The notes under the pieces are model-generated. The model was not told the DNA's origin. It saw nothing but the letters and a program-made list of their open reading frames with translations, and made no database searches. A program made the position numbers and the translations under genes. A stretch of 52,522 bases of DNA from Omnitrophica WOR_2 bacterium RIFCSPHIGHO2_02_FULL_48_11 (GTDB taxonomy: Bacteria; Omnitrophota; Gorgyraeia; Zapsychrales; GWA2-47-8). Below are positions 24,782 through 51,180 of the stretch, one piece after another (position 1 is the first letter of the stretch; every line of letters begins with the position of its first letter). The stretch is from NCBI GenBank assembly GCA_001805615.1, contig MHGP01000035.1, positions 10,222-62,743 of the forward strand, read 5' to 3'.

Positions 24782-25520
24782 CTTTTATCATGAAATACGG
24801 TAAGACCTTATTGAAAAATTTAAATTGGTCAGTATAACTTTCGGTTTTTAATAATGAAGGAAAACAATTAATCAAGAGGGGAGGAAAAAATCCAAAACGG
24901 CGATATTGAATATTATGAAAACCGGCTTCAGTCAGGCTCATTCTAACACGATCAGGAAGGCTGTCGAACTTATGGCCCTCAGCTTGCCAGCCTCGATCCA
25001 ACAAAGTATCAATGTAGTGCAAAGGATTTAAAGCGTTCGGTTCCAAAAAAACCATCCTGCCATCTTTTTTGAGACAGCGTGCGATATTTTCAAAACAATT
25101 TTTAACATCAAATAAATGATGCAGGACATTAAAGCCGATCACAATATCGAACTTCTTATCATTTTCAACGTTTAAGCTATGAATATCGCTGCGCATGATC
25201 GTGTACTGCTTTTCGGGTATTTTCAGTTTATCAGTATCTTCCTGAAGTTTCTTCAGCATTCTTTCGGAAATATCGATAGCCGTAAGCTGGTATCCTCTTA
25301 AAAGCAGCGGAAGTGTATATCGCCCTGCCCCGCAGCCTATCTCTAAAATTTGCTCTTGCGTGGTCAGCGTGGCAAAAGGGATAAATTTATTTAGAATTGA
25401 AGCAACAAAATGCGAATTGCCGTCATACCACATCCGGGAGTGTTCCCGGGAGTTATAGAACTCCTTTTGAAAGCTATTCCACTTCTCTTGTTCCGTGATT
25501 TTGACCTGGCTAGTTAGCAT
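24771..25520 (-). CDS. Class I SAM-dependent methyltransferase
   Basis: Motif I ILEIGCGAGRYTLP, 249 aa. First gene after the internal promoter. Confidence 0.8.
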   Translation of the reverse strand: MLTSQVKITEQEKWNSFQKEFYNSREHSRMWYDGNSHFVASILNKFIPFATLTTQEQILEIGCGAGRYTLPLLLRGYQLTAIDISERMLKKLQEDTDKLKIPEKQYTIMRSDIHSLNVENDKKFDIVIGFNVLHHLFDVKNCFENIARCLKKDGRMVFLEPNALNPLHYIDTLLDRGWQAEGHKFDSLPDRVRMSLTEAGFHNIQYRRFGFFPPLLINCFPSLLKTESYTDQFKFFNKVLPYFMIKGEF

Positions 25521-25589
25521 ATATTCTTCAGATTGTTTGCGCAGTAATTCGTTTAATATGAATAACTTAAATCTCTATATAAACTCCCA

Positions 25590-25606
25590 TGTTCAAAATA
25601 TGAACA
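25590..25606. promoter_or_regulatory. 17-bp perfect palindrome TGTTCA-N5-TGAACA (candidate operator, copy 2)
   Basis: Plus strand 25590..25606 reads TGTTCAAAATATGAACA. It lies 7 nt downstream of the -10 hexamer of promoter P2, and the same half-sites occur at 51101..51117. Confidence 0.5.
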
Positions 25607-25613
25607 CTTGTGT

Positions 25614-25641
25614 ATTATAGTCCTTAACTCCCCCCTGTCAA
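25614..25641 (-). promoter_or_regulatory. Consensus sigma70-type promoter P2: TTGACA-N16-TATAAT
   Basis: Minus strand reads TTGACA (25641..25636), a 16-nt spacer ggggggagttaaggac, then TATAAT (25619..25614). It sits in the 132-bp gap between the 25653 stop and the 25520 start. Confidence 0.6.
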
Positions 25642-25652
25642 GGCAAAAACCG

Positions 25653-27020
25653 TCACTGGCCAGTGTTTTGTTCCAAATAATTACCCACACGGGCACTGGT
25701 CTTACCTCTCTCACTTATGGCGTATTGTTTTAGGGACGGCTCCGCCACAACTTCTACCAATTGCGCCCTGCGTAATTTTTCAGCGATAAGGGACAGCTCC
25801 TGGACCGGCACATTGATCTTCTCGCTGATGTCGATTAAATCAAGTTTCCCGTCCGCGTAGGCAATAAAATCCATCATGTTCCTGACTTGCTCAGCCGACC
25901 CCTTGGCGCTGATTGTCGGATAGAGGCCTCTTTTCCCCAGCTGCGGCTCACCCAAACACGTCATTTTATATTTTTTATTTTTTTCCAATGCCTCGATACA
26001 CTCTTGCAGCACTGCAAATGATCCGGCCAATCCTTCCGCCGAAATAAGTTTTAAATTATCCAAGGACGTATGATATTCGGGATACGTTCCATATTTGCTG
26101 CGCATAATGGAAGCCACCGGCAGGTCAGCTCCGACGGAACAATACTGCCGTTCATCGCTGCCGCGATTCAAAAATGAATACTTAATAAAATCTGGGTGTC
26201 TCAATTTCAACACATTCAGCGCGACCTTGTCCGCCAATGTGTTCCCTAGCCGGGAAGGAAGATACGAATAACAACGCTCATCGCCGACGCAGGTCACATT
26301 AAAACCGGCAATGATGTTTTGTTTCATGTGTTGCAAATTTTTGCTCAGATAAGTGACCGAGCCGATCGTTTCCGGAATAAAAACAATCCGATAGGTATAT
26401 TCCCGCGGTTCACTTAAAAGCCATTTGGCCAGAAACGTGGTGACCACCGGGCCGGAAAGTTCATTATTGGCCATAGAAGGATGGCAAACGTAAGTGGAAA
26501 GAAAAATCTCCTTTTGTGATTGGCCCGGGATGATCAATTCACCATAGGTGAGCGAGCCATCCTTGAGTTCGGAATCGATCACGACTTTATACTTCCCCTT
26601 TTTCAGCTTCTGCCGATCCTTATGCGCCAGGCAAAATCCCCACCGCTCTGCATAATAAGAAGTGACATACGGTATGGCATTGGGTAATTTCTTATCCGAA
26701 TAAAGATGCTCTTGGAGCTCAGCCAGCGTAACGGTTTTATTGACCGGGGTCGCATAACCAACGACGTGGAGGTTATTCTTCTTAAAATCAATGACCTTCT
26801 TTCCCTTGGCATCACTGACATAGGCGTCCTGGATATTCCATTCTTTGGGAACCGTCCAATCAAACACCGGCGTTCCCGACGGGACTTCCTGCACGGTTAA
26901 AGGAATGTGCTCTTGCAATATTTTCAGGGTCGCCCGGACACCGTTTCCCGTAATGCTGCGGCATATCGGGAGCAACCGCTCCGCCAATTTGTACATGGCT
27001 TTTCCTGTCATAGTGTTCAT
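25653..27020 (-). CDS. Aminopeptidase-like (M28-fold, DUF4910-type) polysaccharide-locus protein with C-terminal winged-helix segment
   Basis: 455 aa. The layout and segments such as YRIVFIPETIGS match my recollection of the COG4310-type family that accompanies AAC(3)-like genes in glycan loci. Unverified without an HMM search. Confidence 0.55.
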   Translation of the reverse strand: MNTMTGKAMYKLAERLLPICRSITGNGVRATLKILQEHIPLTVQEVPSGTPVFDWTVPKEWNIQDAYVSDAKGKKVIDFKKNNLHVVGYATPVNKTVTLAELQEHLYSDKKLPNAIPYVTSYYAERWGFCLAHKDRQKLKKGKYKVVIDSELKDGSLTYGELIIPGQSQKEIFLSTYVCHPSMANNELSGPVVTTFLAKWLLSEPREYTYRIVFIPETIGSVTYLSKNLQHMKQNIIAGFNVTCVGDERCYSYLPSRLGNTLADKVALNVLKLRHPDFIKYSFLNRGSDERQYCSVGADLPVASIMRSKYGTYPEYHTSLDNLKLISAEGLAGSFAVLQECIEALEKNKKYKMTCLGEPQLGKRGLYPTISAKGSAEQVRNMMDFIAYADGKLDLIDISEKINVPVQELSLIAEKLRRAQLVEVVAEPSLKQYAISERGKTSARVGNYLEQNTGQ

Positions 27021-36376: not shown

Positions 36377-38107
36377 TTAAGCGCCGGCCGCTAAAATTTC
36401 ACGGAAGCGATCGATCCCGCGATCATCATTGTATTCATCATATTCCCGCAGCAATTCAGCCGGGATGGAGCTGCACGGATTTTCATTTCCTATCAATATT
36501 TTCTTGATCATGTTCAATAATTTCTCGGGATCGGCAAAAACAATTTTATCCTTAAAATGTTTGGCAAAGGGATGGCCGTAACCGACTTCATCCAGATACA
36601 GGCCCTCGATCCCGCAGATGATCGCGATCGTGGATGAGCTGGTCATTCCCTGGCTGACAACGATATCGGCAACTCCGATCGCTTCGATAAAGCAATATTT
36701 CTTCTCATCGAGGATATAAAAATTCGTCGTCCGCTTGATCCCCTGCCGGATCTCCTCAAACTGCGCCTTAAGCGGCCGCGGCAGCTGCTGAAATCTTTCC
36801 GCGGCCTTGGGCTTTATCAGGACGGTCACGTTAGGATTTTCCAAAGCGCATTGATAAGCTGTCCGCCAAAAATTGACAAAATGCTGCGGCGTCATCTCAC
36901 AGATCTCGTCAAATGATTCATCGAAAAATGAAACGACCCGACGGTCATTGGGCAGGCCCAGTTCCGCCAGGACCGACTCCTTCCGCTGGGCCACATCACA
37001 AATGAACCGTTTAAAGACATAACCCGTCGGCACATACGGCGTCGACAAACCCTGCACGTGGATCTTCCCCCATGTCAAATATTTGTCGCAGCCTAAATTC
37101 GAAACGGTCCAGCGGTTCGATTCAATCGAGAAATCAGACCAATGCATCAGGTAATACCGTGTCCCATAATTCTCACAGATGATCGCCTCGGCGATATGGT
37201 TGGAGGCAAAATAACAATGCCCCAGCTCCGAGGTCACGCGATAGTGCGAGAAGATCCGCTCATAGGCTAAGGCATAAAACGCAAAATATAAAAATATGGC
37301 CCGGAATAGCGTAAAATTCCCAGACGGCAATTCTTTCCATAAAAGACCGCTGCTTGCCAAGATGTATCGGGGAATAACCCTTCCGAAAAACGGCTTCACA
37401 CCCAACGACAACTTTTGCAGATTAAAGTGTGCGTAAGGAGACCGCCGGGCGTCCTCATAGCCTTTAAGCCGTGCCCCGGTTTTTGGGATGCTCCTGGAGA
37501 AAAGCAAAAATGATTTTTGCTTTATCTTTTCGCTATCAACCAAAAAATCATCATGAAAGTAATATCCGCCCACGTCATACAAACCCCAAACCGCTTCCCG
37601 CATCACCTTATAAGACTCTCGCGGACCCCGCAGAGTCAAACCGTTTTTCAAACTGAAAGCTAAACAAAACAAAATGTTCCAAAAAATTTGGGCCAGGCGC
37701 TCCCCAAGACCCGACCGTTTCCATTGAACCTTGGGCGAGATCTTAAATTTAGCGGCAAAGCGTTCAACGGCAAACCGGTGGATCGCATTATCCTCTAAAA
37801 CAACCGGGCCGGCAGAATCCGCCAGACTGTCGTTGAGAAGATTGGAAAGCTTGATCATGTATTCCAAAACACAGCGGCTGGCAAAGAAATTAAAACGGTG
37901 CGTTTGAAAACTCTTATTCAACCCCTTCACAAAATCCGATTCCAGGATTTTGTTCGTTTGAATAAACTCATCGGCGAGCTTTGGGATCTCATCGTTGAGC
38001 CAGCGGAAATACTCGGGATTGAGACGTTCCCGGTTGGCCGCATCAAAAGGCAGAAAGAACCGTGTCAGGATCTCGCCAAAAATAATTTTTTTAAAAATAT
38101 CGGTCAT
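36377..38107 (-). CDS. Hypothetical 576-aa protein with GT-B-like C-terminal domain (candidate nonulosonic acid transferase)
   Basis: Long ORF embedded in the pse genes with no named family recognised. The C-terminal ~190 aa (VVSFFDESF..VLIKPK..SQGMTSSSTIA..GYGHPF) parallels the 404-aa protein at 40289..41503. Confidence 0.4.
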   Translation of the reverse strand: MTDIFKKIIFGEILTRFFLPFDAANRERLNPEYFRWLNDEIPKLADEFIQTNKILESDFVKGLNKSFQTHRFNFFASRCVLEYMIKLSNLLNDSLADSAGPVVLEDNAIHRFAVERFAAKFKISPKVQWKRSGLGERLAQIFWNILFCLAFSLKNGLTLRGPRESYKVMREAVWGLYDVGGYYFHDDFLVDSEKIKQKSFLLFSRSIPKTGARLKGYEDARRSPYAHFNLQKLSLGVKPFFGRVIPRYILASSGLLWKELPSGNFTLFRAIFLYFAFYALAYERIFSHYRVTSELGHCYFASNHIAEAIICENYGTRYYLMHWSDFSIESNRWTVSNLGCDKYLTWGKIHVQGLSTPYVPTGYVFKRFICDVAQRKESVLAELGLPNDRRVVSFFDESFDEICEMTPQHFVNFWRTAYQCALENPNVTVLIKPKAAERFQQLPRPLKAQFEEIRQGIKRTTNFYILDEKKYCFIEAIGVADIVVSQGMTSSSTIAIICGIEGLYLDEVGYGHPFAKHFKDKIVFADPEKLLNMIKKILIGNENPCSSIPAELLREYDEYNDDRGIDRFREILAAGA

Positions 38108-38108
38108 A

Positions 38109-39275
38109 CTACGAGCGAACCTTTCTGTACTGCTGAATGATCTTTTCAGTGACGGCGATCACGCGTTTTACATCGGCCGTTGACATTTTCGGAAAAAGCG
38201 GCAAGGTCACTGTTTCCTCATAATAATTTTCCGCGTTAGGACAACTCCCTCTCGCGTATCCTAACTTCTGATAAAACGGCTGATAATAGATCGGGATATA
38301 ATGCACATTCACTAAGATCCCCTGCCGGCGATATTCCTCAAAGATGGTTTTTCGCGGTACGGAAAATTTATTACGCTTAAACATGAGCACATAAATATGC
38401 TGCGCGGATCTGACTTGCGGCGCATCCGGCAAAAATCGCACCTCGTCATAGCGGCTGAAGGCCTTGTTATAAGCAGCGGCAATTTCTCGCCGGCGTTTGA
38501 GAAATTTATTTAATTTGGGCAGTTGACTTAAACCCAACGCGCACTGCATATCCGTCAGGCGGTAATTGAACCCCAGATCCTGCATTTCATAGTACCAACC
38601 GCCGTCATTCCCGGTTAATTGATTGGGATCGCGGGTAATACCGTGGGTGCGCAAGCGCAAAAGTTTTTTGTAAAAATGATCATTATTCATAACCACCGCG
38701 CCGCCTTCCGCCGTCGTAATATGTTTGACCGCGTGAAAACTTAAAGTTGTCATATCGGCAAATCTTCCGGAACCGATCTTTGTTCCCTCATACGTCGCGC
38801 CCAAAGCGTGCGAGGCATCTTCGATCAGTAACAATTTATTTTTCTGCGCGATCTCGTATATTTTCTTTAGATCCGCCGGCTGGCCGGCAAAATCCACCGG
38901 AATGATTGCCTTGGTTTTACCGGTAATTTTCTTTTCGATCTCGGCCGGGTCGATATTGATCGTATCTTCCCGGATATCCGCAAAGATAGGCTTTCCCCCG
39001 CAATAAAGCACACAGTTCGCCGAAGCCACAAAACTGATCGGGCTCGTGATGACTTCATCCCCGGATTGAATGCCGGCAGCCAAACAGGCCAAGTGCAACG
39101 CGGCGGTCCCGTTGGCGACCGATACCGCATATTTCGCGTCACAGCATTTGGCAACGGCGCGATCAAAAAGCTCAACGGTCGGCCCTTGCGTTAAAAAGTT
39201 CGATTTTAAAATTTTCGTAACGCTGCGAATGTCTTTTTGATCAATCCACTGTATCGCGTAAGGAATAGTTTTCAT
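38109..39275 (-). CDS. pseC: UDP-4-amino-4,6-dideoxy-N-acetyl-beta-L-altrosamine transaminase
   Basis: IPYAIQWIDQKDI..LTQGPTV..NGTAALHLA and the PLP-lysine segment SFHAVKHITTAEGG. Adjacent to pseB. Confidence 0.85.
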   Translation of the reverse strand: MKTIPYAIQWIDQKDIRSVTKILKSNFLTQGPTVELFDRAVAKCCDAKYAVSVANGTAALHLACLAAGIQSGDEVITSPISFVASANCVLYCGGKPIFADIREDTINIDPAEIEKKITGKTKAIIPVDFAGQPADLKKIYEIAQKNKLLLIEDASHALGATYEGTKIGSGRFADMTTLSFHAVKHITTAEGGAVVMNNDHFYKKLLRLRTHGITRDPNQLTGNDGGWYYEMQDLGFNYRLTDMQCALGLSQLPKLNKFLKRRREIAAAYNKAFSRYDEVRFLPDAPQVRSAQHIYVLMFKRNKFSVPRKTIFEEYRRQGILVNVHYIPIYYQPFYQKLGYARGSCPNAENYYEETVTLPLFPKMSTADVKRVIAVTEKIIQQYRKVRS

Positions 39276-40255
39276 ATGGTTTTAATGATTTCCTTAAGCT
39301 CGTCCACCGTCAGCCACTGGCTGTTGGTATCGCTCGAATATTTGAAATCTTCCGGCACATCTTTGCCGATCGGATAATTCTCATCGCTCCACCAGTGAAA
39401 TGCCGGCTGAATCACATAACAATTGTCTAATTCTTTGGTATTGCGGGCGTCATCCACCGAGACCATAACTTCATGCAATTTTTCTCCGGGACGGATACCG
39501 ACATTTTTGGTTTTACATTCCGGGGCGATGGCCTTGGCCAGGTCCATAATGTTCATGCTGGGGATTTTCGGAATAAAGATTTCCCCGCCGTGCATTTCTT
39601 CAAAACGGGAGATCACAAAGCGTACCCCCTGCTCGAGTGTAATCCAAAAGCGCGTCATCTTGGGATGCGTGATGGGAAGCACACCTTCTTTCTTTTTATC
39701 AAGAAAAAAGGGAATCACACTCCCGCGACTGCCCACAACGTTGCCGTAACGCACAACCGAAAACCGCGCGCCGGAAATTCCAGAATAAGAATTCGCCGCA
39801 ACAAATAATTTATCCGAACAGAGTTTTGTGGCGCCGTACAGATTGATCGGGTTGCAAGCCTTGTCCGTACTAAGTGCGACAACTTTTTTCACTCCCCTTT
39901 CCAAGGACGCCTCGATAATATTCATCGCACCCAGGATATTGGTCTTGATCGCTTCCGTCGGATTATATTCCATCGCCGGCACCTGTTTAAGGGCTGCGGC
40001 ATGGATGACATAGTCAACATCATGAAACGCGAGCTTTAAACGTTCTTTATCACGCACATCGCCGATAAAAAATCGGATATTCTTATACTGGGCAAATTGC
40101 TGCTGCATATCGAACTGCTTGGCCTCATCGCGGCTGTAAATAATCAATTTTTGGGGACTTAATTCATCCAATACGATTTTGGCGAATTTTTTACCGAAAG
40201 AACCGGTCCCCCCGGTGATTAAAATGGTTTTACCTGTTAACGGACTTTTTTTCAT
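39272..40255 (-). CDS. pseB: UDP-N-acetylglucosamine 4,6-dehydratase (inverting)
   Basis: TILITGGTGSFGKKF, LIIYSRDEAKQFDM, YGATK. This is the typical PseB/FlaA1 signature. GAGGA Shine-Dalgarno 7 nt upstream of the ATG. Confidence 0.9.
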   Translation of the reverse strand: MKKSPLTGKTILITGGTGSFGKKFAKIVLDELSPQKLIIYSRDEAKQFDMQQQFAQYKNIRFFIGDVRDKERLKLAFHDVDYVIHAAALKQVPAMEYNPTEAIKTNILGAMNIIEASLERGVKKVVALSTDKACNPINLYGATKLCSDKLFVAANSYSGISGARFSVVRYGNVVGSRGSVIPFFLDKKKEGVLPITHPKMTRFWITLEQGVRFVISRFEEMHGGEIFIPKIPSMNIMDLAKAIAPECKTKNVGIRPGEKLHEVMVSVDDARNTKELDNCYVIQPAFHWWSDENYPIGKDVPEDFKYSSDTNSQWLTVDELKEIIKTI

Positions 40256-40288
40256 ATTTCCTCACTTCTCATTGCTGTTAAAAAAATT

Positions 40289-41503
40289 TTAAGTAGCTGC
40301 GTATTCTTTTTTTGTACTTTCCTCTAAAGGAACAATTTTGTCAAAGGCATCAGCCACGATGTCCGCATAAAATTTTCGCGGTGTGCTCGTTCTCTTGATA
40401 AACGTTTCCTCGTACTGCCGGTACTTATCCTCATCGATGTGAGACACGGTACTAGCATCCAGGTTCTCAATCGACCGCACGTCCTGCGGTATTTGAGCAA
40501 ATTGCTTAGCGGCAGCCGCAATAACTCTCCCATAAAACTGCCCTTTGACCTTCATCGGCAGCAAGAAGATCAACGGCTTACGGAACATCACGGCAAAATT
40601 CATCGAGGTGCTGCCATGGCACAAAACACATTTGGCGTGCGCGACCAGATCGACCGTCTTTCCTTTGAGCACCATTCTTCCTTCAAATAAATTCGGCATA
40701 TTTTCATAAGGGGCCTTGGGATGGGCGGCAATCACAACCTTAAGCTGCAATTTCTGCTCTATGATCTTAAGCAGGCGGTTCACCTCGTCATAATATTCTT
40801 CCGGGGAGCGAAACGGATTCTGGGGACCGTCCGTCAGATGAAAATCCGGATGGAACGGCCAGCCCTCATCCAAAAACACAACATAATCCCCCTCCACAAG
40901 CGGCTTTTCTCGCCGCTGCTGATGCGCCAGATACAGATCATAATCTAACGTGTGTGCCCAAATGATTCTTGTCCGCTCATCGGTTTGCGGAAATTTATGC
41001 TGATCATAAAGCCCGCCGGCGATCACGAATCGCGCGGGTACGGATCCGGAACGGGTTGATAAAAATTTCTTTTGCAGCCGTTCTGTGAGCCGTTGCCAGG
41101 ACCGCCGTGACAATGCCATCCGCCACAGCGGTTGATACCGTACTTTGGGAATGCTGTTGGCGCAAAAATTCCCATGAATGACATTATTATCCTTTAAATA
41201 TTTTTCCAAGAGAGGCTCGGTCTCCGGACGGCCGACAAAATCAACCAAAAACCAGCGCCGCGCTTTCCTTTCCGCAAAGAATTGCTCAATGTCCGCCGGA
41301 GATTTCACGACGCAAACATGTTCATAGGCCCACGGCTGAATTAAACCTCTTTCCATGACCTCGGGATTGAGCAAAAAAGTCACATCCAAAAAGCTCACCT
41401 GATAGCCCCGCGCGCGAAACCGTTCGACCCCCAGCCGGTCGTAATCGCGCTTCATTAAAGGCAGCGGAATAATAAAACAAATTTCTCGTATGGCCATATG
41501 CAA
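40289..41503 (-). CDS. Hypothetical 404-aa GT-B-like protein with DEG / HP / STS motifs (candidate nonulosonic acid transferase)
   Basis: VVFLDEGWPFHPD (res 208-220), VVIAAHPKAP (res 256-265), CHGSTSMNF (res 295-303). It lies between the two NulO pathways. Confidence 0.4.
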   Translation of the reverse strand: MHMAIREICFIIPLPLMKRDYDRLGVERFRARGYQVSFLDVTFLLNPEVMERGLIQPWAYEHVCVVKSPADIEQFFAERKARRWFLVDFVGRPETEPLLEKYLKDNNVIHGNFCANSIPKVRYQPLWRMALSRRSWQRLTERLQKKFLSTRSGSVPARFVIAGGLYDQHKFPQTDERTRIIWAHTLDYDLYLAHQQRREKPLVEGDYVVFLDEGWPFHPDFHLTDGPQNPFRSPEEYYDEVNRLLKIIEQKLQLKVVIAAHPKAPYENMPNLFEGRMVLKGKTVDLVAHAKCVLCHGSTSMNFAVMFRKPLIFLLPMKVKGQFYGRVIAAAAKQFAQIPQDVRSIENLDASTVSHIDEDKYRQYEETFIKRTSTPRKFYADIVADAFDKIVPLEESTKKEYAAT

Positions 41504-41506
41504 TCC

Positions 41507-42715
41507 TTACGCTATCTCTGCCTTGATCGGTTGCCGCTCATCATAAATACGCACCAGCGCCGCAGACACCTTTTGCACATCCGCTTCGGCAATGTGCGAA
41601 TATAGCGGCAAGCTCAAAATATTATCGGCCACCGACTTTGTCGTCTTTAACGTCAGGGCCGGGTTATTCCGGTAATCCGCAAAGGCTTTTTGTTCATGCA
41701 CCGGCGGATAAAAATATTTCTTAACAATGATGTTTTCTGCCGTCAGGGCCCTATACAGCTGATCACGGCTTAGGCCAAACTTCTTTGCATCGATCAGGAT
41801 GGAAAAATCTTTAAAACTGCTGCGGCTCCCGGCGGCGATCTTTTGAAAGCTGATACCCGGCAAATCCGCCAGCAATTTCTTGTACAATTGGGCGATACGA
41901 TTACGCTGCGCGACATTCTTTTCTAAATCCTTAAGACTCTCGATGCCCAGCAACGCATGAAACTCGCTCATGCGGGAATTAAAACCGGAAAAAACACTGT
42001 CGTAATCGCCGGAATCACCGTAATTGCGGCCCACCCGAAGCTGTCTGGCCAGATCCCCATCATTGGTCGCAACGATCCCGCCCTCGCCGGAGGTCAAAAG
42101 TTTCGTCGGACTGAGGCTAAAGACTTCCGCGTCGCCGAATCCGCCGATATTTTTCCCCTGATACTGCGAGCCGAATCCATGCGCCGCGTCAAAGATCAGT
42201 TTTAAACGATGCTTCTTGGCAATTTTTTCAAGCGCGCTGATATCGGCCGGATTTCCAAAGATATGCACGCCCAAGATCGCCGACGTTTGCGGGGTGATCG
42301 CCTTCTCCACCTGCGCGGGGTCAATGTTGTACGTCTCCGGCAGGCAGTCCACAAACACGGGCTTGAGATTGTTCCACACCAGCGCATGGGCCGTGGCATG
42401 AAACGTAAAGCTCGGCAAGATCACTTCGCCTTTCAATTTTAAGATCTTAAACGTCAGCATGAGTCCCGAGGTACAGCTGCTCACCGCCACCGCTTCTTTA
42501 ACCCCGAGATAATTTGCCACCTGTTTTTCAAATTCCTTAACATAGCCGGCGTTGGTGATCATGCCGCTTTCCAAAATTTGCGTGTATTGGCTGGTCAATT
42601 TGGCGATCGACGGGATCGTGGGCTTGGTGATCGGCAACGGCTGCGCGAAGGCAGGCTGCCCCCCTAAGATCGCTGCAGAGTTTACCGGAGGAACTTTCGT
42701 CTGTGTTTTACTCAT
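41507..42715 (-). CDS. DegT/DnrJ/EryC1/StrS-family PLP-dependent sugar aminotransferase
   Basis: 402 aa with the PLP-lysine segment FSLSPTKLLTSGEGG and typical family layout. Confidence 0.85.
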   Translation of the reverse strand: MSKTQTKVPPVNSAAILGGQPAFAQPLPITKPTIPSIAKLTSQYTQILESGMITNAGYVKEFEKQVANYLGVKEAVAVSSCTSGLMLTFKILKLKGEVILPSFTFHATAHALVWNNLKPVFVDCLPETYNIDPAQVEKAITPQTSAILGVHIFGNPADISALEKIAKKHRLKLIFDAAHGFGSQYQGKNIGGFGDAEVFSLSPTKLLTSGEGGIVATNDGDLARQLRVGRNYGDSGDYDSVFSGFNSRMSEFHALLGIESLKDLEKNVAQRNRIAQLYKKLLADLPGISFQKIAAGSRSSFKDFSILIDAKKFGLSRDQLYRALTAENIIVKKYFYPPVHEQKAFADYRNNPALTLKTTKSVADNILSLPLYSHIAEADVQKVSAALVRIYDERQPIKAEIA

Positions 42716-44097
42716 TTGTTATACTCCACGTTGTAATATTTACGATCGTTGACGTCTTTAATTTCATTTTTCTCAATCGCGCGTTTAATGCGCAGGACCG
42801 ACTTCTCCAGATCCTGATCGGCTTTATAGCGCAAAAATTTTTCGATCCTTGAAAAGGAAACCAGATAGTTGCGCGGGTCATTGTTGGAATCCTCCACGAC
42901 CAATTGGGCCTCAGGCACGCAGCTATGGACCTTCTGAGCGATCTGAATGATCTGATAATTTTGCCGGCTTGATCCGACATTGAAGACATTCCCTTTGATC
43001 TTATCCACCGGCGCTTTTAAACACTTGATATACGCATCCGCCGCATCCTCAACATGCAAAAGCGGCCGCCACTGTTTCCCGCCGTTAAAAACCAAGATCT
43101 TTTTTTCAGTCACGGCGGTCTTGGTCATCGTATTGACCACGAGATCAAAGCGCATCCGCGGCGAATAACCGTACAGTGTGCTCATCCGTAAGATCGTCGG
43201 AGAAAAATTTTCGTCCTCGAGGCTTAAGATCCCTTCTTCGGCCTGGATCTTGGAACGCGCGTAAAGCGAAACCGGATTGAGCGGCGAATTTTCTTTCAAC
43301 TCCTGATCCCCGTCCATAACGCCGTACACACTGCAGGTCGAGGCATAAATGAACCGGTTGATCTGATGATATTTGCAGGCCTCGGCCAAAACCTTGTTCG
43401 CCAAATAATTTGTTTCGATGGCGGATTCGGGTTTCTCCTGGCAGGCCGGATCACCGACCACGGCGGCCAGATTAATGACCGCATCGACGCCTTCCAGGGC
43501 CTTGACCAGCGTCGGGATATTGCGCATATCGCCTTCAATCAGCTCAAACCCTTTTTGCCCGATCAATCCCTCGACCGGCCCAGCACCGAACATGAGAAGG
43601 TCCAAGACCCGCACACGAAAACCGTCCGCCAAAAGTTTTCGCACCAAGATCGATCCTAGGTAGCCGGCTCCTCCCACCACCAAGACATGACGATCCGCGT
43701 GATGTTTCTTTCTCTTGGGAAATTGTTCCTCCATCAATTCCGAACATAACGCCAAACGCTCCGGCTGCCCCTCTTCATCAAGCACCAGAATATAACGGCT
43801 ATCCGGCATGCGGCTCAACAATTCCTTTATCTTGGCGCGGACAACTTGGGAATTGCTTAAATCTTTAGGATTAAGAATAACCGGATTAGGATTAAGAATT
43901 TTATTCACTAAACTTTTAATATCCTGACCCTTCAAGATACTTTTGCGTATTTCGCTGTCGCTGACCACTCCGGCAAAACGCTTTTTCTCATCAACGACAT
44001 ACGCCACCCGCAGTCCAGAGTGGTCAATAGCCCGCATTGCGTCCTTGACCGTGGCTTTTTCCGAAATAAGGGCACTTTTTAAAATTTTATTTTTCAT
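42712..44097 (-). CDS. CBS-pair domain fused to NAD-dependent sugar dehydratase/epimerase (extended SDR)
   Basis: The N-terminal ~125 aa looks like a CBS pair (..ATVKDAMRAIDHSGLRVAYVVDEKKRFAGVVSDSEIRK..). This is followed by HVLVVGGAGYLGSILV and YARSK (YxxxK). Confidence 0.8.
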   Translation of the reverse strand: MKNKILKSALISEKATVKDAMRAIDHSGLRVAYVVDEKKRFAGVVSDSEIRKSILKGQDIKSLVNKILNPNPVILNPKDLSNSQVVRAKIKELLSRMPDSRYILVLDEEGQPERLALCSELMEEQFPKRKKHHADRHVLVVGGAGYLGSILVRKLLADGFRVRVLDLLMFGAGPVEGLIGQKGFELIEGDMRNIPTLVKALEGVDAVINLAAVVGDPACQEKPESAIETNYLANKVLAEACKYHQINRFIYASTCSVYGVMDGDQELKENSPLNPVSLYARSKIQAEEGILSLEDENFSPTILRMSTLYGYSPRMRFDLVVNTMTKTAVTEKKILVFNGGKQWRPLLHVEDAADAYIKCLKAPVDKIKGNVFNVGSSRQNYQIIQIAQKVHSCVPEAQLVVEDSNNDPRNYLVSFSRIEKFLRYKADQDLEKSVLRIKRAIEKNEIKDVNDRKYYNVEYNK

Positions 44098-44738
44098 TTT
44101 TTTCGCTTAATCACTTTCGCCGGCACACCGGCAACCGTAACACGTTCCGGAACGGAAGCGATCACAACCGCGCCGGCTCCGACCATCGTGTTCTTTCCGA
44201 TAGAAACATTTTGGATCACGGCGGCGCCTGTCCCCACATAAGAACAACTGCCTACCCGCACCGTTCCGGCCAAATGCGCGCCCGGCCAAATATGGCAAAA
44301 AGCCTCAAGGTAACAGTCATGATCAACGCTGGCACCGGTATTCACCACCGCCCCGTCTTCCAAGATCGCGGAAGGATTGATCACCGCTCCGGCCATCACC
44401 ACCACTCCGCGACCTAGCCGCGCATGGCGCGACACAACCGCCCGCGGATGCACGGCGGAGATCACTTGAAAGCCGAGCGCCGTCGCTTTTTGAAAGATGG
44501 TTTTACGTATTTCATTATTACCGATACCTAACGCAATTTTTACGGCCCGCTTATTCTTGATCTTTTCCAAATACGCGGCATTTCCTAAAATGCGGCAGCC
44601 GTTGATGCTTTGGTTGACCTTCTTTTTATCATCATCGATAAAACCTAACACCGGAATTTTTGATTCCGCTAAAATGTCGAGGATGACCTTGCCGTGTCCT
44701 CCCGCGCCCCAGATAATAACTTTTGTTGGTTTAGTCAT
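44094..44738 (-). CDS. NeuD/PglD-family sugar N-acetyltransferase (left-handed beta-helix)
   Basis: N-terminal KVIIWGAGGHGKVILDIL..GFIDDD, followed by hexapeptide repeats (..GAVINPSAILEDGAVVNTGASV..VGTGAAVIQNVSIGKNTMVGAGAVV). Confidence 0.85.
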   Translation of the reverse strand: MTKPTKVIIWGAGGHGKVILDILAESKIPVLGFIDDDKKKVNQSINGCRILGNAAYLEKIKNKRAVKIALGIGNNEIRKTIFQKATALGFQVISAVHPRAVVSRHARLGRGVVVMAGAVINPSAILEDGAVVNTGASVDHDCYLEAFCHIWPGAHLAGTVRVGSCSYVGTGAAVIQNVSIGKNTMVGAGAVVIASVPERVTVAGVPAKVIKRKK

Positions 44739-44742
44739 ATTT

Positions 44743-45891
44743 TTAGTAGGTGATCTTTTTCTGTATTAATCGGTTATTTAAATTGACCTTCCCTAAAAAT
44801 TTTACGATCCGGCCGCTGGCCTTTCCGTCACCATAAGGATTGCGGCACTGCTTGACACGCCGGCGGAACTTTTGATCATGGATCACTTTTTGGATCACGC
44901 GCGCAATGATCCGCTTCTCATGCGGCACATCGATCACATTGACACTGCGCTCTCTGCCTTCTTGACGGCAGCCGATATTAATCACCGGCAAACGGAACGA
45001 CGCCGCTTCAATGATCCCGCTGCTGGAATTTCCTATCAGCACCGATGCTATTTTTAAAAGGCCCAAATAATCGGCATGCGGGATACTTTTATAATGTTTC
45101 AGGAACAGATATTTTTTAAATTTACCCAAAACCTTGATCATCGCCCGCCCGCCGGCATCCGCATTCGGATAAACCACCACAGTTTGCAACTTTAGATCAA
45201 CAATGGCCTGCAAGGTCGACTGGATCTGCTTTCCCGCTTCCTTGATTTGTGAATGCACCGGATGCTGCACCAAAAGACCCAACGGCTGGCGTGGATCAAG
45301 GCGATATTTTTTTAATAATGTTTGTTTAGGCATGACCTGGTCATTTAAGATCCGATCCAGCGCCGGAGCACCCGCGACCATGACACGCCACGGCTCTTCC
45401 CCCAATCTCAGGATCCGCTCTCTCGCTTTTTGGGTAGCTGGAAAATGAATATGCGCGAGTTTGGTGATCGCATGGCGGACAACCCCGTCCACATGACCCG
45501 AGACCTCGCCGCCGTGAATATGCACAACGGGAATGTTCATATAATTCGCCGCCACCGCGGCCGCCAGGACCTCGCCCCGGTCGCCCAAAGTCAAAATAAA
45601 ATCCGGTCTCAACCGTTGAAAGCATCGCACAAATTTGGAGGTGCCGCGCCCCACACCATCGGCCATCGCCCCACCTTTATCCTGCGCATGACTGATGTCG
45701 ATCTTTGCGTAAACCGAAAACCCGTCGCGTTCAATTTCTTTCACGGTATAACCAAACTCCGTCATCAAATGCATTCCCGTCGCCACCACATACAAATTGA
45801 AATGCTTCGAACTCCGGATCGCCTCCATCACCGGAGCCAAGATCCCGTATTCCGCCCGCGTTCCCGTGATCACACACACTTTACGTTTCAT
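44743..45891 (-). CDS. neuC: UDP-N-acetylglucosamine 2-epimerase (hydrolysing), NeuC/LegG-like
   Basis: KVCVITGTRAEYGILAPVMEAI and VVHIHGGEVSG. I place the start at MKRKVCV.., giving an ATGA overlap with the neuB-like stop (45888..45891). Confidence 0.85.
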   Translation of the reverse strand: MKRKVCVITGTRAEYGILAPVMEAIRSSKHFNLYVVATGMHLMTEFGYTVKEIERDGFSVYAKIDISHAQDKGGAMADGVGRGTSKFVRCFQRLRPDFILTLGDRGEVLAAAVAANYMNIPVVHIHGGEVSGHVDGVVRHAITKLAHIHFPATQKARERILRLGEEPWRVMVAGAPALDRILNDQVMPKQTLLKKYRLDPRQPLGLLVQHPVHSQIKEAGKQIQSTLQAIVDLKLQTVVVYPNADAGGRAMIKVLGKFKKYLFLKHYKSIPHADYLGLLKIASVLIGNSSSGIIEAASFRLPVINIGCRQEGRERSVNVIDVPHEKRIIARVIQKVIHDQKFRRRVKQCRNPYGDGKASGRIVKFLGKVNLNNRLIQKKITY

Positions 45892-46937
45892 TGCACGATA
45901 TCCCATGAAAAAATTTGATCTTTACGGATTATAGTTTTGGCCCTTTTCCCGGTCAGCCGCTGTAGCCATTTCGGCTCGATCCCGGTTCCCGGCCGCTTGA
46001 CCGTCAGCATATCCGACGTGATTGTGACCCCTTTTTCAATATCACACGCCGCCACAATACTCTTGCGCGCGACCTTCTGAATCGCGATCTCCGACGGATT
46101 AGGTTTCTTAATACCGTTGCCTCTGGCTTTCTCAACATTACGAATCGCCTCGACCATTTTCTGAAACTCCTGCGGCTCCAGCGAAGTTTTATGGTCCGGC
46201 CCCGGCAAATTTTTATCCAGTGTCAGATGTTTTTCAATGACGCACGCGCCCAGCGCAACCGCCGCAACGCTGATCTCAATTCCCAATGTATGGTCCGAAT
46301 ACCCCACCGCGACATCAAATTTATTTCTTAAAGTCAGCATCGCATTCAAATTCACTTCTTCATATTTGGTCGGATAATTCGACGTGCAATGCAGCAAAAT
46401 CAGCTCCCTGTTCCCCTCCTTATGAATCGTCTTCACCGCTTCAACAACCTCCTCCAGCGACGACATGCCCGTCGACAAGATGATCGGCTTTTTAAACTGT
46501 GCCACTTGCTGCAACAAAGGGACATTGGTCAATTCTCCAGAACCGATCTTATACGCCGGCAATCCCAGCAACGCGAGGAACTCCGCGCTGATCCGATCGA
46601 ACGGCGTTGACAAAAACATGATCCCCTTTTTCTGGGAATACTCAAATAATTCGGAAAATTGATCCTCGGAAAGTTCCAGTTTTTTAAGCATGGCGTATTG
46701 GGAAGGATGCGCATCGGTCTTTTTTTGATATTCCGCTTTCGGCGCGTTCGCCGTCACTAATTCCTCAGCGCGAAAGGTTTGAAATTTTATCGCGTCCGCA
46801 CCGATCCTTTTTGCACTATCCACTAACTTCTTAGCCATGGCGATCTGACCGTTGTGATTCACCCCTGCCTCAGCGATGATAAAGACCGGACATTGTTCCG
46901 CGATCACACGGTTCCCTATTTTAATTCCCTTAGCCAT
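45888..46937 (-). CDS. neuB: N-acylneuraminate/legionaminate synthase, NeuB/LegI-like
   Basis: CPVFIIAEAGVNHNGQIAMAKKLV, GADAIKFQTF, and a SAF-like C-terminus. 349 aa. Confidence 0.9.
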   Translation of the reverse strand: MAKGIKIGNRVIAEQCPVFIIAEAGVNHNGQIAMAKKLVDSAKRIGADAIKFQTFRAEELVTANAPKAEYQKKTDAHPSQYAMLKKLELSEDQFSELFEYSQKKGIMFLSTPFDRISAEFLALLGLPAYKIGSGELTNVPLLQQVAQFKKPIILSTGMSSLEEVVEAVKTIHKEGNRELILLHCTSNYPTKYEEVNLNAMLTLRNKFDVAVGYSDHTLGIEISVAAVALGACVIEKHLTLDKNLPGPDHKTSLEPQEFQKMVEAIRNVEKARGNGIKKPNPSEIAIQKVARKSIVAACDIEKGVTITSDMLTVKRPGTGIEPKWLQRLTGKRAKTIIRKDQIFSWDIVQ

Positions 46938-47532
46938 GGTGTTTTGACTTTCCCAAAAGATAGATCGTCTCGTTATTCTTTAAAACCTCTTTTTCAAGGC
47001 TGAAAAGCGTATTAAAAACCTCTCTCAGTTCTTCAAATGACTTCACAAAACCGATGGGATCCGGTGGTAAATACAGCGTGATATAAACATAGTTGGCTTT
47101 CGCCGCGGCTTTCTGCAAAACTTCTTCCCAATTTTGTAAATAAGACAGAACCTCTAGCATCACGATGGCGTCCCATCTTTGCGGAGCACTTAAAGCTTCT
47201 TCGGCGGTCGCGGTGGAGAAACGAATCCCCGGGTACCGTTGTTCAGCTTTAGCGATCGCTGTTTGCGAAATATCAACACCCATCACAGAATCGGCAATCG
47301 TTGCGAGTTGATTTGTAAAAGCCCCTTTGCCGCAACCGATGTCCAGAATGGAAGAGAACCTGTAATTTTTCAAGAGCTCCCAGGAACCTTGCTTGGTCGG
47401 ATGCCGCAGATCCTCCTGAAACCAGCTGTCAAAACCTTCTCGCTCCTCGTTGGCGTACATCTCTTCAAAGCGGCCCACGAATTTACGGTTTTCGGTATCA
47501 AAAACATATTTATGATACGGTTGCTGTGTCAT
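46930..47532 (-). CDS. Class I SAM-dependent methyltransferase
   Basis: Motif I ILDIGCGKGAFTNQL, 200 aa. Located between the neuA-like and neuB-like genes. Confidence 0.75.
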   Translation of the reverse strand: MTQQPYHKYVFDTENRKFVGRFEEMYANEEREGFDSWFQEDLRHPTKQGSWELLKNYRFSSILDIGCGKGAFTNQLATIADSVMGVDISQTAIAKAEQRYPGIRFSTATAEEALSAPQRWDAIVMLEVLSYLQNWEEVLQKAAAKANYVYITLYLPPDPIGFVKSFEELREVFNTLFSLEKEVLKNNETIYLLGKSKHHG

Positions 47533-48169
47533 GTTCTACACCCGCGTGTTGTTTCAACAAAACTTGCTCCGCCAGCCAGAAATCAAACTCCTCATCGATC
47601 TCGATATTTTCTTCGCGGCCGGTAAAAACGTTGCCTGCCTTTTTTCCGTAGAGCGTTCCTTTTTTGATCAACGACGATTTCACCACATACACATTGCCGT
47701 CGTCGTAAAAAAATCCCTTTAACTCCTGCCGGCGCTTGGTGTAACTGCCGTATTCCATAAATTTGCAGATAAACCCGGTCGCCAAATTATCACACTTCTT
47801 TTTTTCAAACTCTCTGATACATTCATCGATCAATCCGGCCCGGCGGATCGGTGAGGTCGGCTGCAAGATCACAACATTCTCCGCATCGATCTTAGTTAAT
47901 ACCTGCTGCAAGGCCGACAAGGTCGTCGCGGTATCCGTTGCCAATTTCTTCGGCCGGTCGATCACCTCGCACCCGAACGTTCGTGCCACTTGAGCGATCT
48001 CGGCATCTTCCGTCGAGACCACGCACCGGTCGAGCAATTTCGCTTGCCGCGCCGCTTCCATCGTCCAGGCGAGCAAAGGTTTGCCGGCGATCATTTTGAT
48101 ATTTTTCCGCGGGATCCCTTTGCTTCCTCCGCGCGCCGGGATCACGGCTAAGTACGGGATACGAGACAT
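47510..48169 (-). CDS. neuA: Acylneuraminate cytidylyltransferase, NeuA/LegF-like
   Basis: LAVIPARGGSKGIPRKNIKMIAGKPLL. I place the start at the internal Met (MSRIPYL..). The upstream part of the ORF overlaps the preceding gene in another frame. Confidence 0.85.
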   Translation of the reverse strand: MSRIPYLAVIPARGGSKGIPRKNIKMIAGKPLLAWTMEAARQAKLLDRCVVSTEDAEIAQVARTFGCEVIDRPKKLATDTATTLSALQQVLTKIDAENVVILQPTSPIRRAGLIDECIREFEKKKCDNLATGFICKFMEYGSYTKRRQELKGFFYDDGNVYVVKSSLIKKGTLYGKKAGNVFTGREENIEIDEEFDFWLAEQVLLKQHAGVEHDTATVS

Positions 48170-49344
48170 TCTTTTTCTACTTCCTGAGCGGTGTCGCGCA
48201 CCGCTGCAATAACCTGGTTGATACGTTCTTCCGGCATCAAAACCATGATTGGCAGCGCGATCGCCCGCCGCAGATAACCGGTTGACTGGCTCCAAACTTT
48301 CTCCAGATCTTTTCCTTTAAATTCCGAAAAGTTATAAAAAATCTGTGTCCATGTACCGGCAAAATGCCAATCGATCGCGTCGGGCAAATTTTTCGTCCCA
48401 AAGCCTTTGTCTTTCAACTTTTTTGCAAAAAGCGACGCCTTCTCTCTCGATGGCATGAAAAAGATCAGCGTGTCGCCCGCATCACCCTCGGGGTTGGGGA
48501 TCTCCCGGAACTCGATGCCCGGAATATTCTTGATCCCTTCCTTGATCTTGCGCTTATTGTCGCGCTGTTTTTGCAGGATATAATCCAATTTCTTTAACTG
48601 GGCTAAGCCGATCGCGCCGTGCAGTTCATTGGCTTTATAATTGAAGCCCCAAGTCGTGCGCGTGTCTTCGCCGCGGGGCACCTTGGGATTTTGTTCATGG
48701 CCGTGATCCGAATATTCCCGTGCCTTCAAATAAATTTTTTCATCATTGGTAACAACCAGCCCGCCTTCGCCGGTCGTGATGATCTTACCGATATCCAAAC
48801 TGTAGATCCCGACGGCGCCAAGCGTTCCCAGATATTTTCCTTTATACGTCGCGCCCATGGCCTGAGCACTGTCTTCCACGATCGGCAAACCATGCTTTTG
48901 CGCGATCGCCTGGATCTCCTCCATCTTGGCAGCGACTCCGGCCATGTATACCGGCACGATCGCTTTAGTTTTTTTCGTGATCTTTTTTTCCAGATCTTTG
49001 GGGTCCATATTCAACGATTTATCCACCTCCGTCACAACGGGAACAGCGCCTAATTCCAAGATCGCCTCGATGGTCGCGATAAACGTAAAACTCTGCGTGA
49101 TGACCTCGTCCCCGGCCTTGACCCCGACGGCAAGCAAGGCAAGCTTCAAAGCAGCGGTCCCATTGCAAACACACAAGACATGCTTCACACCGATCTTCTT
49201 AGCAACGGCATTTTCAAAATCATTCACCCGAAAAATGTTCTGCCGCTTGGCATCTAATCCGTAGCGGTATAAAACGCCTCCCTTATCAAAAAGGTCGGCC
49301 ACCGCCTGTTTTTCTTCTTCTCCGATCAACTCAAACCCTGGCAT
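48148..49344 (-). CDS. DegT/DnrJ/EryC1/StrS-family PLP-dependent aminotransferase (second copy)
   Basis: 398 aa with the PLP-lysine segment YSLDIGKIITTGEGG. Confidence 0.85.
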   Translation of the reverse strand: MPGFELIGEEEKQAVADLFDKGGVLYRYGLDAKRQNIFRVNDFENAVAKKIGVKHVLCVCNGTAALKLALLAVGVKAGDEVITQSFTFIATIEAILELGAVPVVTEVDKSLNMDPKDLEKKITKKTKAIVPVYMAGVAAKMEEIQAIAQKHGLPIVEDSAQAMGATYKGKYLGTLGAVGIYSLDIGKIITTGEGGLVVTNDEKIYLKAREYSDHGHEQNPKVPRGEDTRTTWGFNYKANELHGAIGLAQLKKLDYILQKQRDNKRKIKEGIKNIPGIEFREIPNPEGDAGDTLIFFMPSREKASLFAKKLKDKGFGTKNLPDAIDWHFAGTWTQIFYNFSEFKGKDLEKVWSQSTGYLRRAIALPIMVLMPEERINQVIAAVRDTAQEVEKECLVSRT

Positions 49345-50506: not shown

Positions 50507-51062
50507 TTTTCTCCATGAGGACATTGTCTTTGGAAAGTTCATGAATAAGGTCAACTGTTTTAACCGGATAGCCGGGATCGACAATAACATTTTCCCGGCA
50601 GATAAACACGACACCCCTAAAATCCGCGGGCGGAAGTTCTTCGGTGTAGGCCAATTTATAATCCGTTAATCCCAGATCTTTAAAGACCATTTCCGTTAGG
50701 ATCGCAAAGTCTGATTTCCCCAGAATGACAAAATTCCTCTCCCCCTCTTGATAAAGCGCGGCAATGAGTTGCTTGGCCTGGTCTTTGATAAGGCCGATGG
50801 CATTGAGTGTATTCAGGGTGTATTTGATGGATTTGCGCATTTTTTCGGCAAATCCTTTTGGGGTAAGAATATATTGAACTTTACGTTGATTGAGTTGCGT
50901 GATGCGGATATAACCCTTGGCCACGAGGCGACGGATGAGCATATTCGTTTGCCCCAGGGAAAGCTGCAAATGGCGGGAAAGGTCGCGCTGATTAGAGCCT
51001 AACTTCTGTCCGATAATATTAACGAGCTCAAACTCGCGTTCGTCCAAAACTTCTTTAGGCAT
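50499..51062 (-). CDS. MarR-like winged-helix transcriptional regulator (EPS-associated type) with extra ~85-aa C-terminal domain
   Basis: N-terminal NQRDLSRHLQLSLGQTNMLIRRLVAKGYIRITQLNQRKVQYILTPKGFAEK matches my recollection of the EPS-associated MarR family. It is the first gene after promoter P1. Confidence 0.65.
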   Translation of the reverse strand: MPKEVLDEREFELVNIIGQKLGSNQRDLSRHLQLSLGQTNMLIRRLVAKGYIRITQLNQRKVQYILTPKGFAEKMRKSIKYTLNTLNAIGLIKDQAKQLIAALYQEGERNFVILGKSDFAILTEMVFKDLGLTDYKLAYTEELPPADFRGVVFICRENVIVDPGYPVKTVDLIHELSKDNVLMEKNV

Positions 51063-51100
51063 ATATACTTATCACTTTGCTAGAGGTTTTATAGACAGCT

Positions 51101-51117: not shown

Positions 51118-51122
51118 TATAA

Positions 51123-51150: not shown

Positions 51151-51180
51151 TAATTAATTGAATTCTAAGGGTTGGGCCGC

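Follow-up and report, generated by a model that had tools for sequence, protein, structure and literature searches.

A candidate CMP-pseudaminic acid glycosyltransferase with a GT-B fold encoded inside a pseudaminic acid operon of an Omnitrophota bacterium

We analysed a stretch of 52,522 nucleotides (hereafter the window) of contig MHGP01000035.1 of Omnitrophica WOR_2 bacterium RIFCSPHIGHO2_02_FULL_48_11, a member of the Omnitrophota. Our subject is a gene for a protein of 576 amino acids (aa), here called X, which lies among genes for the synthesis of pseudaminic acid (Pse) and of its activated form, cytidine monophosphate-Pse (CMP-Pse). An initial annotation, made from the sequence alone, had proposed that X is a pseudaminyltransferase of an unrecognised family. 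A second gene, Y404, is encoded upstream of pseB and recurs in what follows, since it is a frequent partner of X.

X is a real, conserved gene. Its ATG start comes a single nucleotide after the TAG stop of pseC, and its TAA stop is followed by a 16-nt spacer with the motif GAGGAG and then by the TTG start, at position 36360, of a cytidylyltransferase gene. The limits of this open reading frame (ORF), its length and both gaps are exactly as initially annotated. We scored the neighbouring genes against curated NCBIfam models, using the cut-off of each family, and against a local copy of Pfam-A (Table 1). The cytidylyltransferase is of the SpsF/COG1861 type and is not a TIGR03584 equivalog, so that its role as CMP-Pse synthetase, and its designation 'pseF', come from its context. 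In the pseG-pseH fusion, the PseG part (residues 1-273) scores 134.9 bits with TIGR03590 and the PseH part (residues 342-479) 45.6 bits with TIGR03585, below the respective cut-offs of 153.55 and 93.1; the PseH part also matches PF13302. PseB, PseC, the PseG-PseH fusion, PseI and the cytidylyltransferase cover the six steps of Pse biosynthesis. Hence, X is an extra, seventh function. Its use as a stand-in for PseG or PseH was ruled out, since both are present in the window as a fusion and PseG-type genes occur in most related loci. The listed pseI ORF and the 3' end of the pseG-pseH fusion have 116 nt in common. The real start of pseI is probably the internal methionine M34 or M35, because the alignment with the PseI model begins at residue 43.

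Table 1. Coordinates in the window of X, of its domains and motifs, and of the neighbouring genes.
Feature	Position	Strand	Description
X	36377..38107	(-)	576-aa ORF, ATG start, GT-B fold, PFTS-related clade; candidate CMP-pseudaminic acid glycosyltransferase (112 homologues; AlphaFold; Foldseek)
X, residues 1-95	37823..38107	(-)	N-terminal helical extension; DSSP helices 2-18, 23-28, 31-51, 58-66, 72-93
X, residues 96-380	36968..37822	(-)	Enlarged Rossmann-like N-terminal (acceptor) domain; strands alternate with helices in the AlphaFold model
X, residues 381-540	36488..36967	(-)	C-terminal Rossmann (nucleotide-sugar-binding) domain; strands 390-396, 427-433, 463-465, 482-486, 501-505, plus helices
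D396-E397 (FFDESF)	36917..36922	(-)	End of first C-domain beta-strand; D396 superfamily-wide, E397 invariant in X clade only
K432-P433-K434 (K-x-K)	36806..36814	(-)	End of second beta-strand; K434 invariant, K432 at least 90% conserved superfamily-wide
G487-M488-T489-S490-S491	36635..36649	(-)	Local form of the PFTS motif; N-terminus of helix 490-497
H512-P513-F514	36566..36574	(-)	His invariant in X clade; aligned to a gap in P0347 and P0355, both genuine PFTS proteins
pseC (aminotransferase)	38109..39275	(-)	Directly upstream of X; TIGR03588 500 bits, cut-off 423.5
pseB (inverting 4,6-dehydratase)	39272..40255	(-)	TIGR03589 536 bits, cut-off 407.75
'pseF' (SpsF/COG1861-type cytidylyltransferase)	35623..36360	(-)	PF02348 122 bits; TIGR03584 (PseF) 24 bits, cut-off 205.7
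pseG-pseH fusion	34130..35626	(-)	UDP-sugar hydrolase and GNAT acetyltransferase in one protein of 498 aa
pseI (pseudaminic acid synthase)	33121..34245	(-)	TIGR03586 467 bits, cut-off 340.25
Y404	40289..41503	(-)	Distinct GT-B-fold protein of 404 aa; motifs D212-E213-G214, H261-P262, S297-T298-S299; frequent X partner

Family placement and fold of X

We identified 112 homologues of X with 36-51% identity (E-values down to 5e-193). Those that could be named come from Omnitrophota, Margulisiibacteriota/WOR-1, Elusimicrobiota and similar metagenome-assembled genomes (MAGs). An exhaustive search with the profile of the X clade retrieved 586 representative clusters at E≤0.001. X has a weak but specific match to the NCBIfam model TIGR04417 (PFTS_polysacc, 'polysaccharide biosynthesis PFTS motif protein'; 31 bits, E 1.2e-7), limited to residues 388-508 and short of the cut-off of 100 bits. 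The same model is weakly matched by 59 of the 75 members of the clade (best E 8e-11). The homology of the clade to genuine members of the corresponding family, TIGR04417/PF27878, is nearly full length. For example, the X-clade profile (A1) matched protein P0347 of the archaeon Methanococcoides, which itself scores 241.7 bits on TIGR04417, over positions 51-583 (E 6.7e-17), and it matched an ORF of locus L025 with 77.7 bits (E 3e-23). Since the profile spans genuine PFTS members nearly end to end, X forms part of a sister clade of a family that already has a name. The initial annotation had called X an orphan with no known family; judging from sequence comparison, it is instead a below-threshold relative of the PFTS-motif family. 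The same comparison places it outside every characterised family, as it fails the cut-offs of both TIGR04417 and NF046086, the model of the Tannerella enzymes discussed below.

More general searches were uninformative. X has no match in the local copy of Pfam-A, which predates PF27878, and all 75 clade members gave only scattered noise at E≤1. Searches of PDB chains with X, with a 75-sequence profile and with a broader 74-sequence profile gave a few matches at E 0.27 or worse, which we regard as noise. Starting from the genuine PFTS protein P0347, we retrieved only 16 archaeal or metagenomic proteins, none of them from a characterised organism. The distant relatives of X, including the genuine TIGR04417 proteins of Methanococcoides, were all found in clusters with NeuB and a cytidylyltransferase, i.e., in nonulosonic acid clusters. 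In two loci the distant relative has a further partner: a 634-aa protein of the PF27859 'LIC12162' family in L029 (4000..8896), and, in L030 (1..8869), another PFTS paralogue next to a gene of the DAHP_synth_1 type (Kdo-8-P-synthase-like). These proteins may represent further candidate families of ulosonic acid transferases.

We modelled the structure of X with AlphaFold, using the alignment of 75 sequences, and compared it to the PDB with Foldseek. The model is of high confidence (predicted local distance difference test, pLDDT, 93.1; predicted template modelling score, pTM, 0.92), with lower values in residues 1-30 (pLDDT ~59). It matched GT-B enzymes with probability 1.0 over ~500 aligned columns; the GT-B fold therefore covers the whole protein. 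The matches were GT20 trehalose-6-phosphate synthases, which had the best E-values, TagF, the GT41 enzymes SPY/OGT, LpxB (GT19) and the UDP-N-acetylglucosamine (UDP-GlcNAc) 2-epimerase. TagF gave the best superposition (TM-score 0.56-0.57, root-mean-square deviation ~7.5 Å), with a sequence identity of 8-9%. The model has two Rossmann-like domains with a cleft between them, and C-terminal helices that return to the N-terminal domain, as expected of a GT-B enzyme. The initial annotation was thus right to see a GT-B pattern in X, but it had limited this pattern to the last ~190 residues.

The N-terminal ~380 residues had been read as suggesting membrane association. They correspond to the GT-B acceptor domain and the helical extension, and the two hydrophobic stretches in question (residues 138-153 and 268-282) are helices 134-152 and 265-286 of that domain. 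The highest Kyte-Doolittle hydropathy of X in a 19-residue window is 1.48, below the classical transmembrane value of 1.6, and this maximum falls within the Rossmann core of the C-terminal domain. Given this value, and given that the two helices are part of a confidently modelled globular domain, we rejected the idea that they span the membrane. Some homologues reach values of 1.6-2.4 around residues 120-160. Monotopic or peripheral association of X with the membrane is possible; peripheral association is common in GT-B enzymes.

Conserved residues of X are found in both domains. The four peptides quoted in the initial annotation are in place (VVSFFDESF at residues 391-399, VLIKPK at 429-434, SQGMTSSSTIA at 485-495 and GYGHPF at 509-514), and they are no chance matches: across the 75 homologues, D396, E397, K432, K434, G487-S491 and H512 either do not vary or show a conservation of at least 90%. 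The conservation of D396, K432 and K434, and likewise that of the T/S-S loop, persists in the wider superfamily. These residues occupy canonical donor-binding positions of the C-terminal domain: D396 follows beta-1, K432-x-K434 follows beta-2, and GMTS(S) lies at the N-terminus of a helix. The position of G487-S491 in the model suggests a phosphate-binding loop. In an hmmalign alignment, genuine TIGR04417 proteins have PFSS and CFTS where X has GMTS, so that the T and S of the motif are retained in X and the P and F are not. H512 is confined to the nearer relatives of X, in which the clade-specific H512-P513 comes after the TS loop. The N-terminal domain contributes W174-G175, H185-D186-D187-F188, D191, E283, H297, H304, E307, W323-S324-D325, W346-G347, H350, G362 and K366.

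X resembles and departs from the PFTS proteins in several respects. Both have co-linear D, K-x-K and (P/G)(F/M)(T/S)S elements, both are of the same size (~520-690 aa), and both occur in clusters with NeuB and a cytidylyltransferase, often with a Y404-family gene directly upstream. In contrast, only the C-terminal domain of X aligns to the TIGR04417 model, its motif is GMTS rather than PFTS, and its clade has an invariant H512-P-F. The X clade is also bacterial, has a specific link to pseB-pseC and frequently occurs as a fusion with PseF.

Linkage of X to pseudaminic acid genes

To characterise the genomic context of X we compared 60 non-redundant loci, drawn from both genomes and metagenomes. 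The most common gene order was (Y404)-pseB-pseC-X, followed by (Y404)-X-pseB-pseC. Among the 19 X loci with at least ~5 kb of sequence on each side, 18 had pse genes. The arrangements pseB-pseC-X or X-pseB-pseC recur in Omnitrophota, Margulisiibacteriota/WOR-1, Elusimicrobiota and 'Planctomycetales' MAGs; the expected co-occurrence with pse genes was thus found, and the synteny with pseB-pseC holds across phyla. At least eight loci encode X and pse genes with no Y404 within 10 kb. The closest relative is locus L004 of a 'Planctomycetales' MAG, whose genes are in the same order; there the identity is 51% for X, compared with 87% for PseB, 75% for PseC and 77% for PseI. Faster divergence is commonly seen for acceptor-specific transferases.

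Gene fusions also link X to the pathway. A C-terminal PF02348 cytidylyltransferase domain is fused to X in 33 of the 112 homologues. All of the 29 fused domains that were examined are 42-54% identical to the 'pseF' product of the window, and do not resemble in this way the cytidylyltransferase of the legionaminic-type cluster. The 1167-aa protein P0233 (L026, 10001..13504) is a natural triple fusion X-PseF-PseG, whose PseG part scores 163 bits (cut-off 153.55), in a locus with the order Y-pseB-pseC-X. Since X is nearly always found with pse genes and is often fused to the CMP-Pse synthetase, it is a good candidate for the enzyme that attaches Pse.

Proposed activity of X and its alternatives

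We regard X as a candidate cytoplasmic glycosyltransferase of GT-B type that depends on CMP-Pse, and consider this the probable, though far from certain, function of the gene. The core idea of the initial annotation, a GT-B-type transferase dedicated to pseudaminic acid, is supported by the fold, by the synteny with pseB-pseC and by the fusions to PseF or to PseF and PseG. We found no confident homology to a non-transferase family, which would have spoken against that idea, and both the GT-B fold and the co-occurrence with pse genes were found. X, soluble or peripheral, would take the CMP-Pse made by the adjacent PseF-type cytidylyltransferase and transfer Pse from it to a glycan acceptor. The C-terminal domain may bind CMP-Pse via D396, K432/K434 and the T489-S491 loop at the N-terminus of its helix. 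The two lysines and the loop would bind or neutralise the CMP phosphate, with Lys in the role of the histidine of the sialyltransferase His-Pro (HP) motif. The base or nucleophile could be one of the conserved acidic residues D186/D187, D325 or D396/E397. The enlarged and strongly conserved N-terminal domain (HDDF 185-188, E283, H297, H304, E307, WSD 323-325, H350, K366) would bind or present the acceptor.

Comparison with known systems shows how much of this is shared with other enzymes of nonulosonic acids. The bacterial GT-B sialyltransferases of families GT38, GT52 and GT80 have the same fold and a CMP-nonulosonate donor, as we infer for X. In GT80 the D/E-D/E-G motif lies in the N-terminal domain, in contrast to the D-E of X, which is in the C-terminal domain. 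As far as the motifs of Freiberger 2007 are reproduced in PMC5420450, these enzymes have, like X and in the same order, an acidic pair, then a basic residue with Pro after it, and a phosphate loop rich in Ser/Thr. X lacks the glycine of their D/E-D/E-G motif (D396-E397-S398, with only the D superfamily-wide), and it has K432-P433 at the position of HP. We detected no sequence or profile similarity between X and GT38/GT52/GT80 (Pfam, 75 members at E≤1; PDB sequences, profiles A1 and A3).

The enzymes Tanf_01245/TFUB4_00887 of Tannerella forsythia, which are genetically required for the addition of Pse or legionaminic acid (Leg) (PMC5420450), are similar to X in general plan. Like X, these proteins (NF046086, BFO_1060) are GT-B/TagB-like, lie beside a CMP-nonulosonate biosynthesis locus and have their donor motifs in the C-terminal domain (PMC5420450), but they are of ~445 aa with D/E-D/E-G and HP, whereas X is of 576 aa with D-E-S and K-P-K. 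X itself did not match NF046086 at E≤0.1; three of the 75 clade members (best E 1.9e-5) and the fusion P0233 (21.9 bits) matched it weakly (E 1.9e-5 to 8e-5), against a cut-off of 200 bits. KpsS1 (GT118), Maf and FlmG share the function proposed for X, the transfer of Pse from CMP-Pse (PMC12887879; PMC7591256). KpsS1 is of a retaining lineage that resembles Kdo transferases (PMC12887879), and FlmG modifies flagellin, according to a preprint on FlmG. No sequence similarity of X to these three was detected, nor any Capsule_synth or Maf match in Pfam or NCBIfam. Hence, the known Pse transferases KpsS1/GT118, Maf, FlmG and Tanf_01245 appear, at the level of sequence, unrelated or only faintly related to X.

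Several observations weigh against the proposed activity. X has no sequence-level match to the characterised families of sialyl-, Kdo- or Pse-transferases (Pfam; PDB sequences with profiles), and no GT-B sialyltransferase is among the 50 Foldseek matches listed for it. Its K432-P433 aligns by hhalign with H261-P262 of Y404, i.e., Lys takes the place of the HP-motif His. We found no published function for TIGR04417/PF27878, a literature search on 'PFTS motif' and TIGR04417 having come back empty. A precedent also calls for caution: SpsB of Bacillus subtilis was predicted to be a Leg transferase from its context, its TagB-like domain and its DEG and HP motifs, and yet it is dispensable for Leg transfer (PMC7439481). 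Because the fusions follow the gene order, what they prove is that the pathway is shared, not that the steps come one after the other. Finally, in L045 (21.7 kb; 9854..12882) an X orthologue lies by Y404 in a NeuB/NeuC cluster with no pseB/pseC in view. The same is true of the visible flanks of three short contigs (L006, L008 and L037). The X orthologues of these four loci are clear (~45% identity), and their clusters also have a cytidylyltransferase. The donor specificity of the clade may therefore not be uniformly Pse; alternatively, these genomes may have their pse genes at another site.

The first alternative to consider is that X, as a GT-B transferase acting on the same glycan, uses another donor, either an NDP-hexose, for the sugar that receives Pse, or, as a TagF-like phosphotransferase, a CDP-alditol, with Y404 as the real Pse transferase. 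We judge it unlikely, even if it accounts for a number of observations. The best TM-score of X is with TagF and its top Foldseek E-values are with UDP-glucose enzymes. X lacks the HP His, whereas Y404 has D/E-D/E-G and HP motifs like the Tannerella enzymes and directly precedes pseB in many loci (Y-pseB-pseC-X). Nevertheless, the fusions involve X and not Y404. The association with pse genes is also tighter for X than for Y404: in eight loci X occurs with pse genes and without Y404, and in L027 Y404 is present with both X and the pse genes absent. The likeness to the CDP-glycerol glycerophosphotransferases TagF/TagB consists of a GT-B-like fold and, for TagF, a donor with a cytidine-nucleotide leaving group. 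It is a similarity of fold only, as X has no PF04464 match, and no CDP-alditol pathway is found in the window: no gene for the supply of CDP-glycerol or CDP-ribitol was seen there, the sole PF01467 protein being fused to a PfkB kinase and HldE-like.

The GT-B fold is not exclusive to transferases. UDP-GlcNAc 2-epimerases are among the fold matches of X, PseG is itself a GT-B-like hydrolase, and X directly follows pseC in the operon. X might thus act on a nucleotide sugar of the Pse pathway, hydrolysing or epimerising it in the manner of NeuC, PseG or the 2-epimerases, or it might modify or edit CMP-Pse. This is improbable given that the Pse pathway is complete without X and that PseG is separate in the window, is joined to X in a single polypeptide in P0233, and has matches of its type in most related loci. 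The large conserved N-terminal domain also suggests a macromolecular or oligosaccharide acceptor rather than water. That X is a non-catalytic GT-B-like partner of Y404 or of another transferase (a scaffold or acceptor-binding subunit, as GtfB is to GtfA) would fit the frequent adjacency of X and Y404, in Bacteria and in an archaeon, and the absence of the canonical catalytic His, but we consider it very improbable, as X occurs without Y404 in at least eight loci and its polar or charged donor-site residues (D396, K432, K434, T489-S491, H512) are strongly conserved, which fits catalysis.

A broader and considerably more tentative proposal can be made. The PFTS superfamily would be a hitherto uncharacterised family of CMP-nonulosonate glycosyltransferases at the level of CAZy, present in Bacteria and Archaea, with K-x-K in place of HP. 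X and the Y404 family would form a conserved two-enzyme module that adds two nonulosonic acids of different kinds, in this case Pse and one of legionaminic type, to one glycan, possibly as a di-nonulosonate, and the X-PseF(-PseG) fusions would channel CMP-Pse to the transferase.

Few Pse- or Leg-attaching enzymes are known, namely KpsS1/GT118, Maf, FlmG and the Tannerella enzymes, and according to a paper of 2018 the legionaminic acid transferase of protein glycosylation had still to be found in any organism (PMC6137143). X is a candidate for a new transferase family with a Lys-based donor motif, natural fusions to the synthetase, hosts among uncultivated bacteria and relatives in Archaea. Were X confirmed as a Pse transferase, this would provide the PFTS-motif family with a function and define a new glycosyltransferase family whose donor site is based on Lys, and the natural synthetase-transferase fusions would be one-polypeptide tools for chemoenzymatic pseudaminylation. 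It would also mean that uncultivated Omnitrophota, Margulisiibacteriota and Elusimicrobiota of groundwater and soil make surface glycans with two nonulosonic acids. Practical use is limited at present, as none of the hosts is in culture.

Y404 and the wider gene cluster

Y404 is likely to start two codons downstream of the listed start, because a 99%-identical database protein has 402 aa. Its AlphaFold model (pLDDT 92.5) matched best GT1 enzymes and UDP-GlcNAc 2-epimerases. The DEG, HP and STS motifs are conserved in its homologues, and the first two are similar to the D/E-D/E-G and HP motifs found in bacterial sialyltransferases and in the Pse/Leg transferases of Tannerella (PMC5420450). Members of the family range from Omnitrophota to Methanococcoides, where the one beside P0347 scores 470 bits on the Y404 profile, and very often adjoin an X/PFTS-family gene. 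One of 75 relatives of Y404 weakly matches TIGR04331 (LIC12162). Y404 was seen only where a second NeuB/cytidylyltransferase set is near. We infer that it probably transfers the second nonulosonic acid, here from the legionaminic-type pathway, with X serving Pse.

The initial annotation had noted the same order of elements in X and Y404. The three peptides it quoted in Y404 (residues 208-215, 258-263 and 296-303) are in place, and hhalign pairs exactly these with the C-terminal domain of X, the part also matched by TIGR04417 (probability 42%, E 2.7e-4). The shared order is, however, common to the nucleotide-binding topology of GT-B proteins in general. When the X profile was broadened, the match fell to 2% probability (E 0.021), and BLASTP gave no significant similarity between the two proteins. 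On these grounds a specific kinship beyond GT-B topology was rejected.

The pse operon and Y404 are part of a much larger assembly. Upstream of Y404 a legionaminic-type pathway (41507..48295) encodes NeuB, a NeuC-type epimerase, a PglD-like acetyltransferase, a CBS-dehydratase, an aminotransferase and a second cytidylyltransferase. All ORFs of the window with an assigned function are on the (-) strand and nearly all are genes for the biosynthesis or modification of sugars. Positions 50..52092 (-) are nearly all one co-directional supercluster of glycan biosynthesis, with the legionaminic-type and pseudaminic pathways. It also holds several radical S-adenosylmethionine/B12 enzymes, C-methyltransferases, a split transketolase, an HldE-like kinase/nucleotidyltransferase, GT2 enzymes and a YfhO-like membrane protein. 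We found no flippase of the Wzx type in the window. Three ORFs of the cluster, all on the (-) strand, had no Pfam match: 2231..3478 (415 aa), 9203..9688 (161 aa) and 16041..16667 (208 aa). Amid the sugar genes, 25653..27889 (-) encodes a DUF4910/DUF2172 aminopeptidase-like protein with a winged-helix domain, followed by a protein of the Antibiotic_NAT (aminoglycoside 3-N-acetyltransferase) family. The DNA of the window is present in groundwater and soil metagenomes.

A small HTH_24/MarR-like regulator heads the nonulosonic acid cluster, both in the window (50499..51062, (-)) and in two related loci of other phyla (L003, 202..741; L028, 1590..1937). The listed ORFs of the cytidylyltransferase of the legionaminic-type cluster (47510..48295) and of the upstream DegT aminotransferase (48148..49344), both on the (-) strand, overlap by 148 nt. 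The true start of this cytidylyltransferase is probably downstream of the listed TTG, because its Pfam match begins at residue 50.

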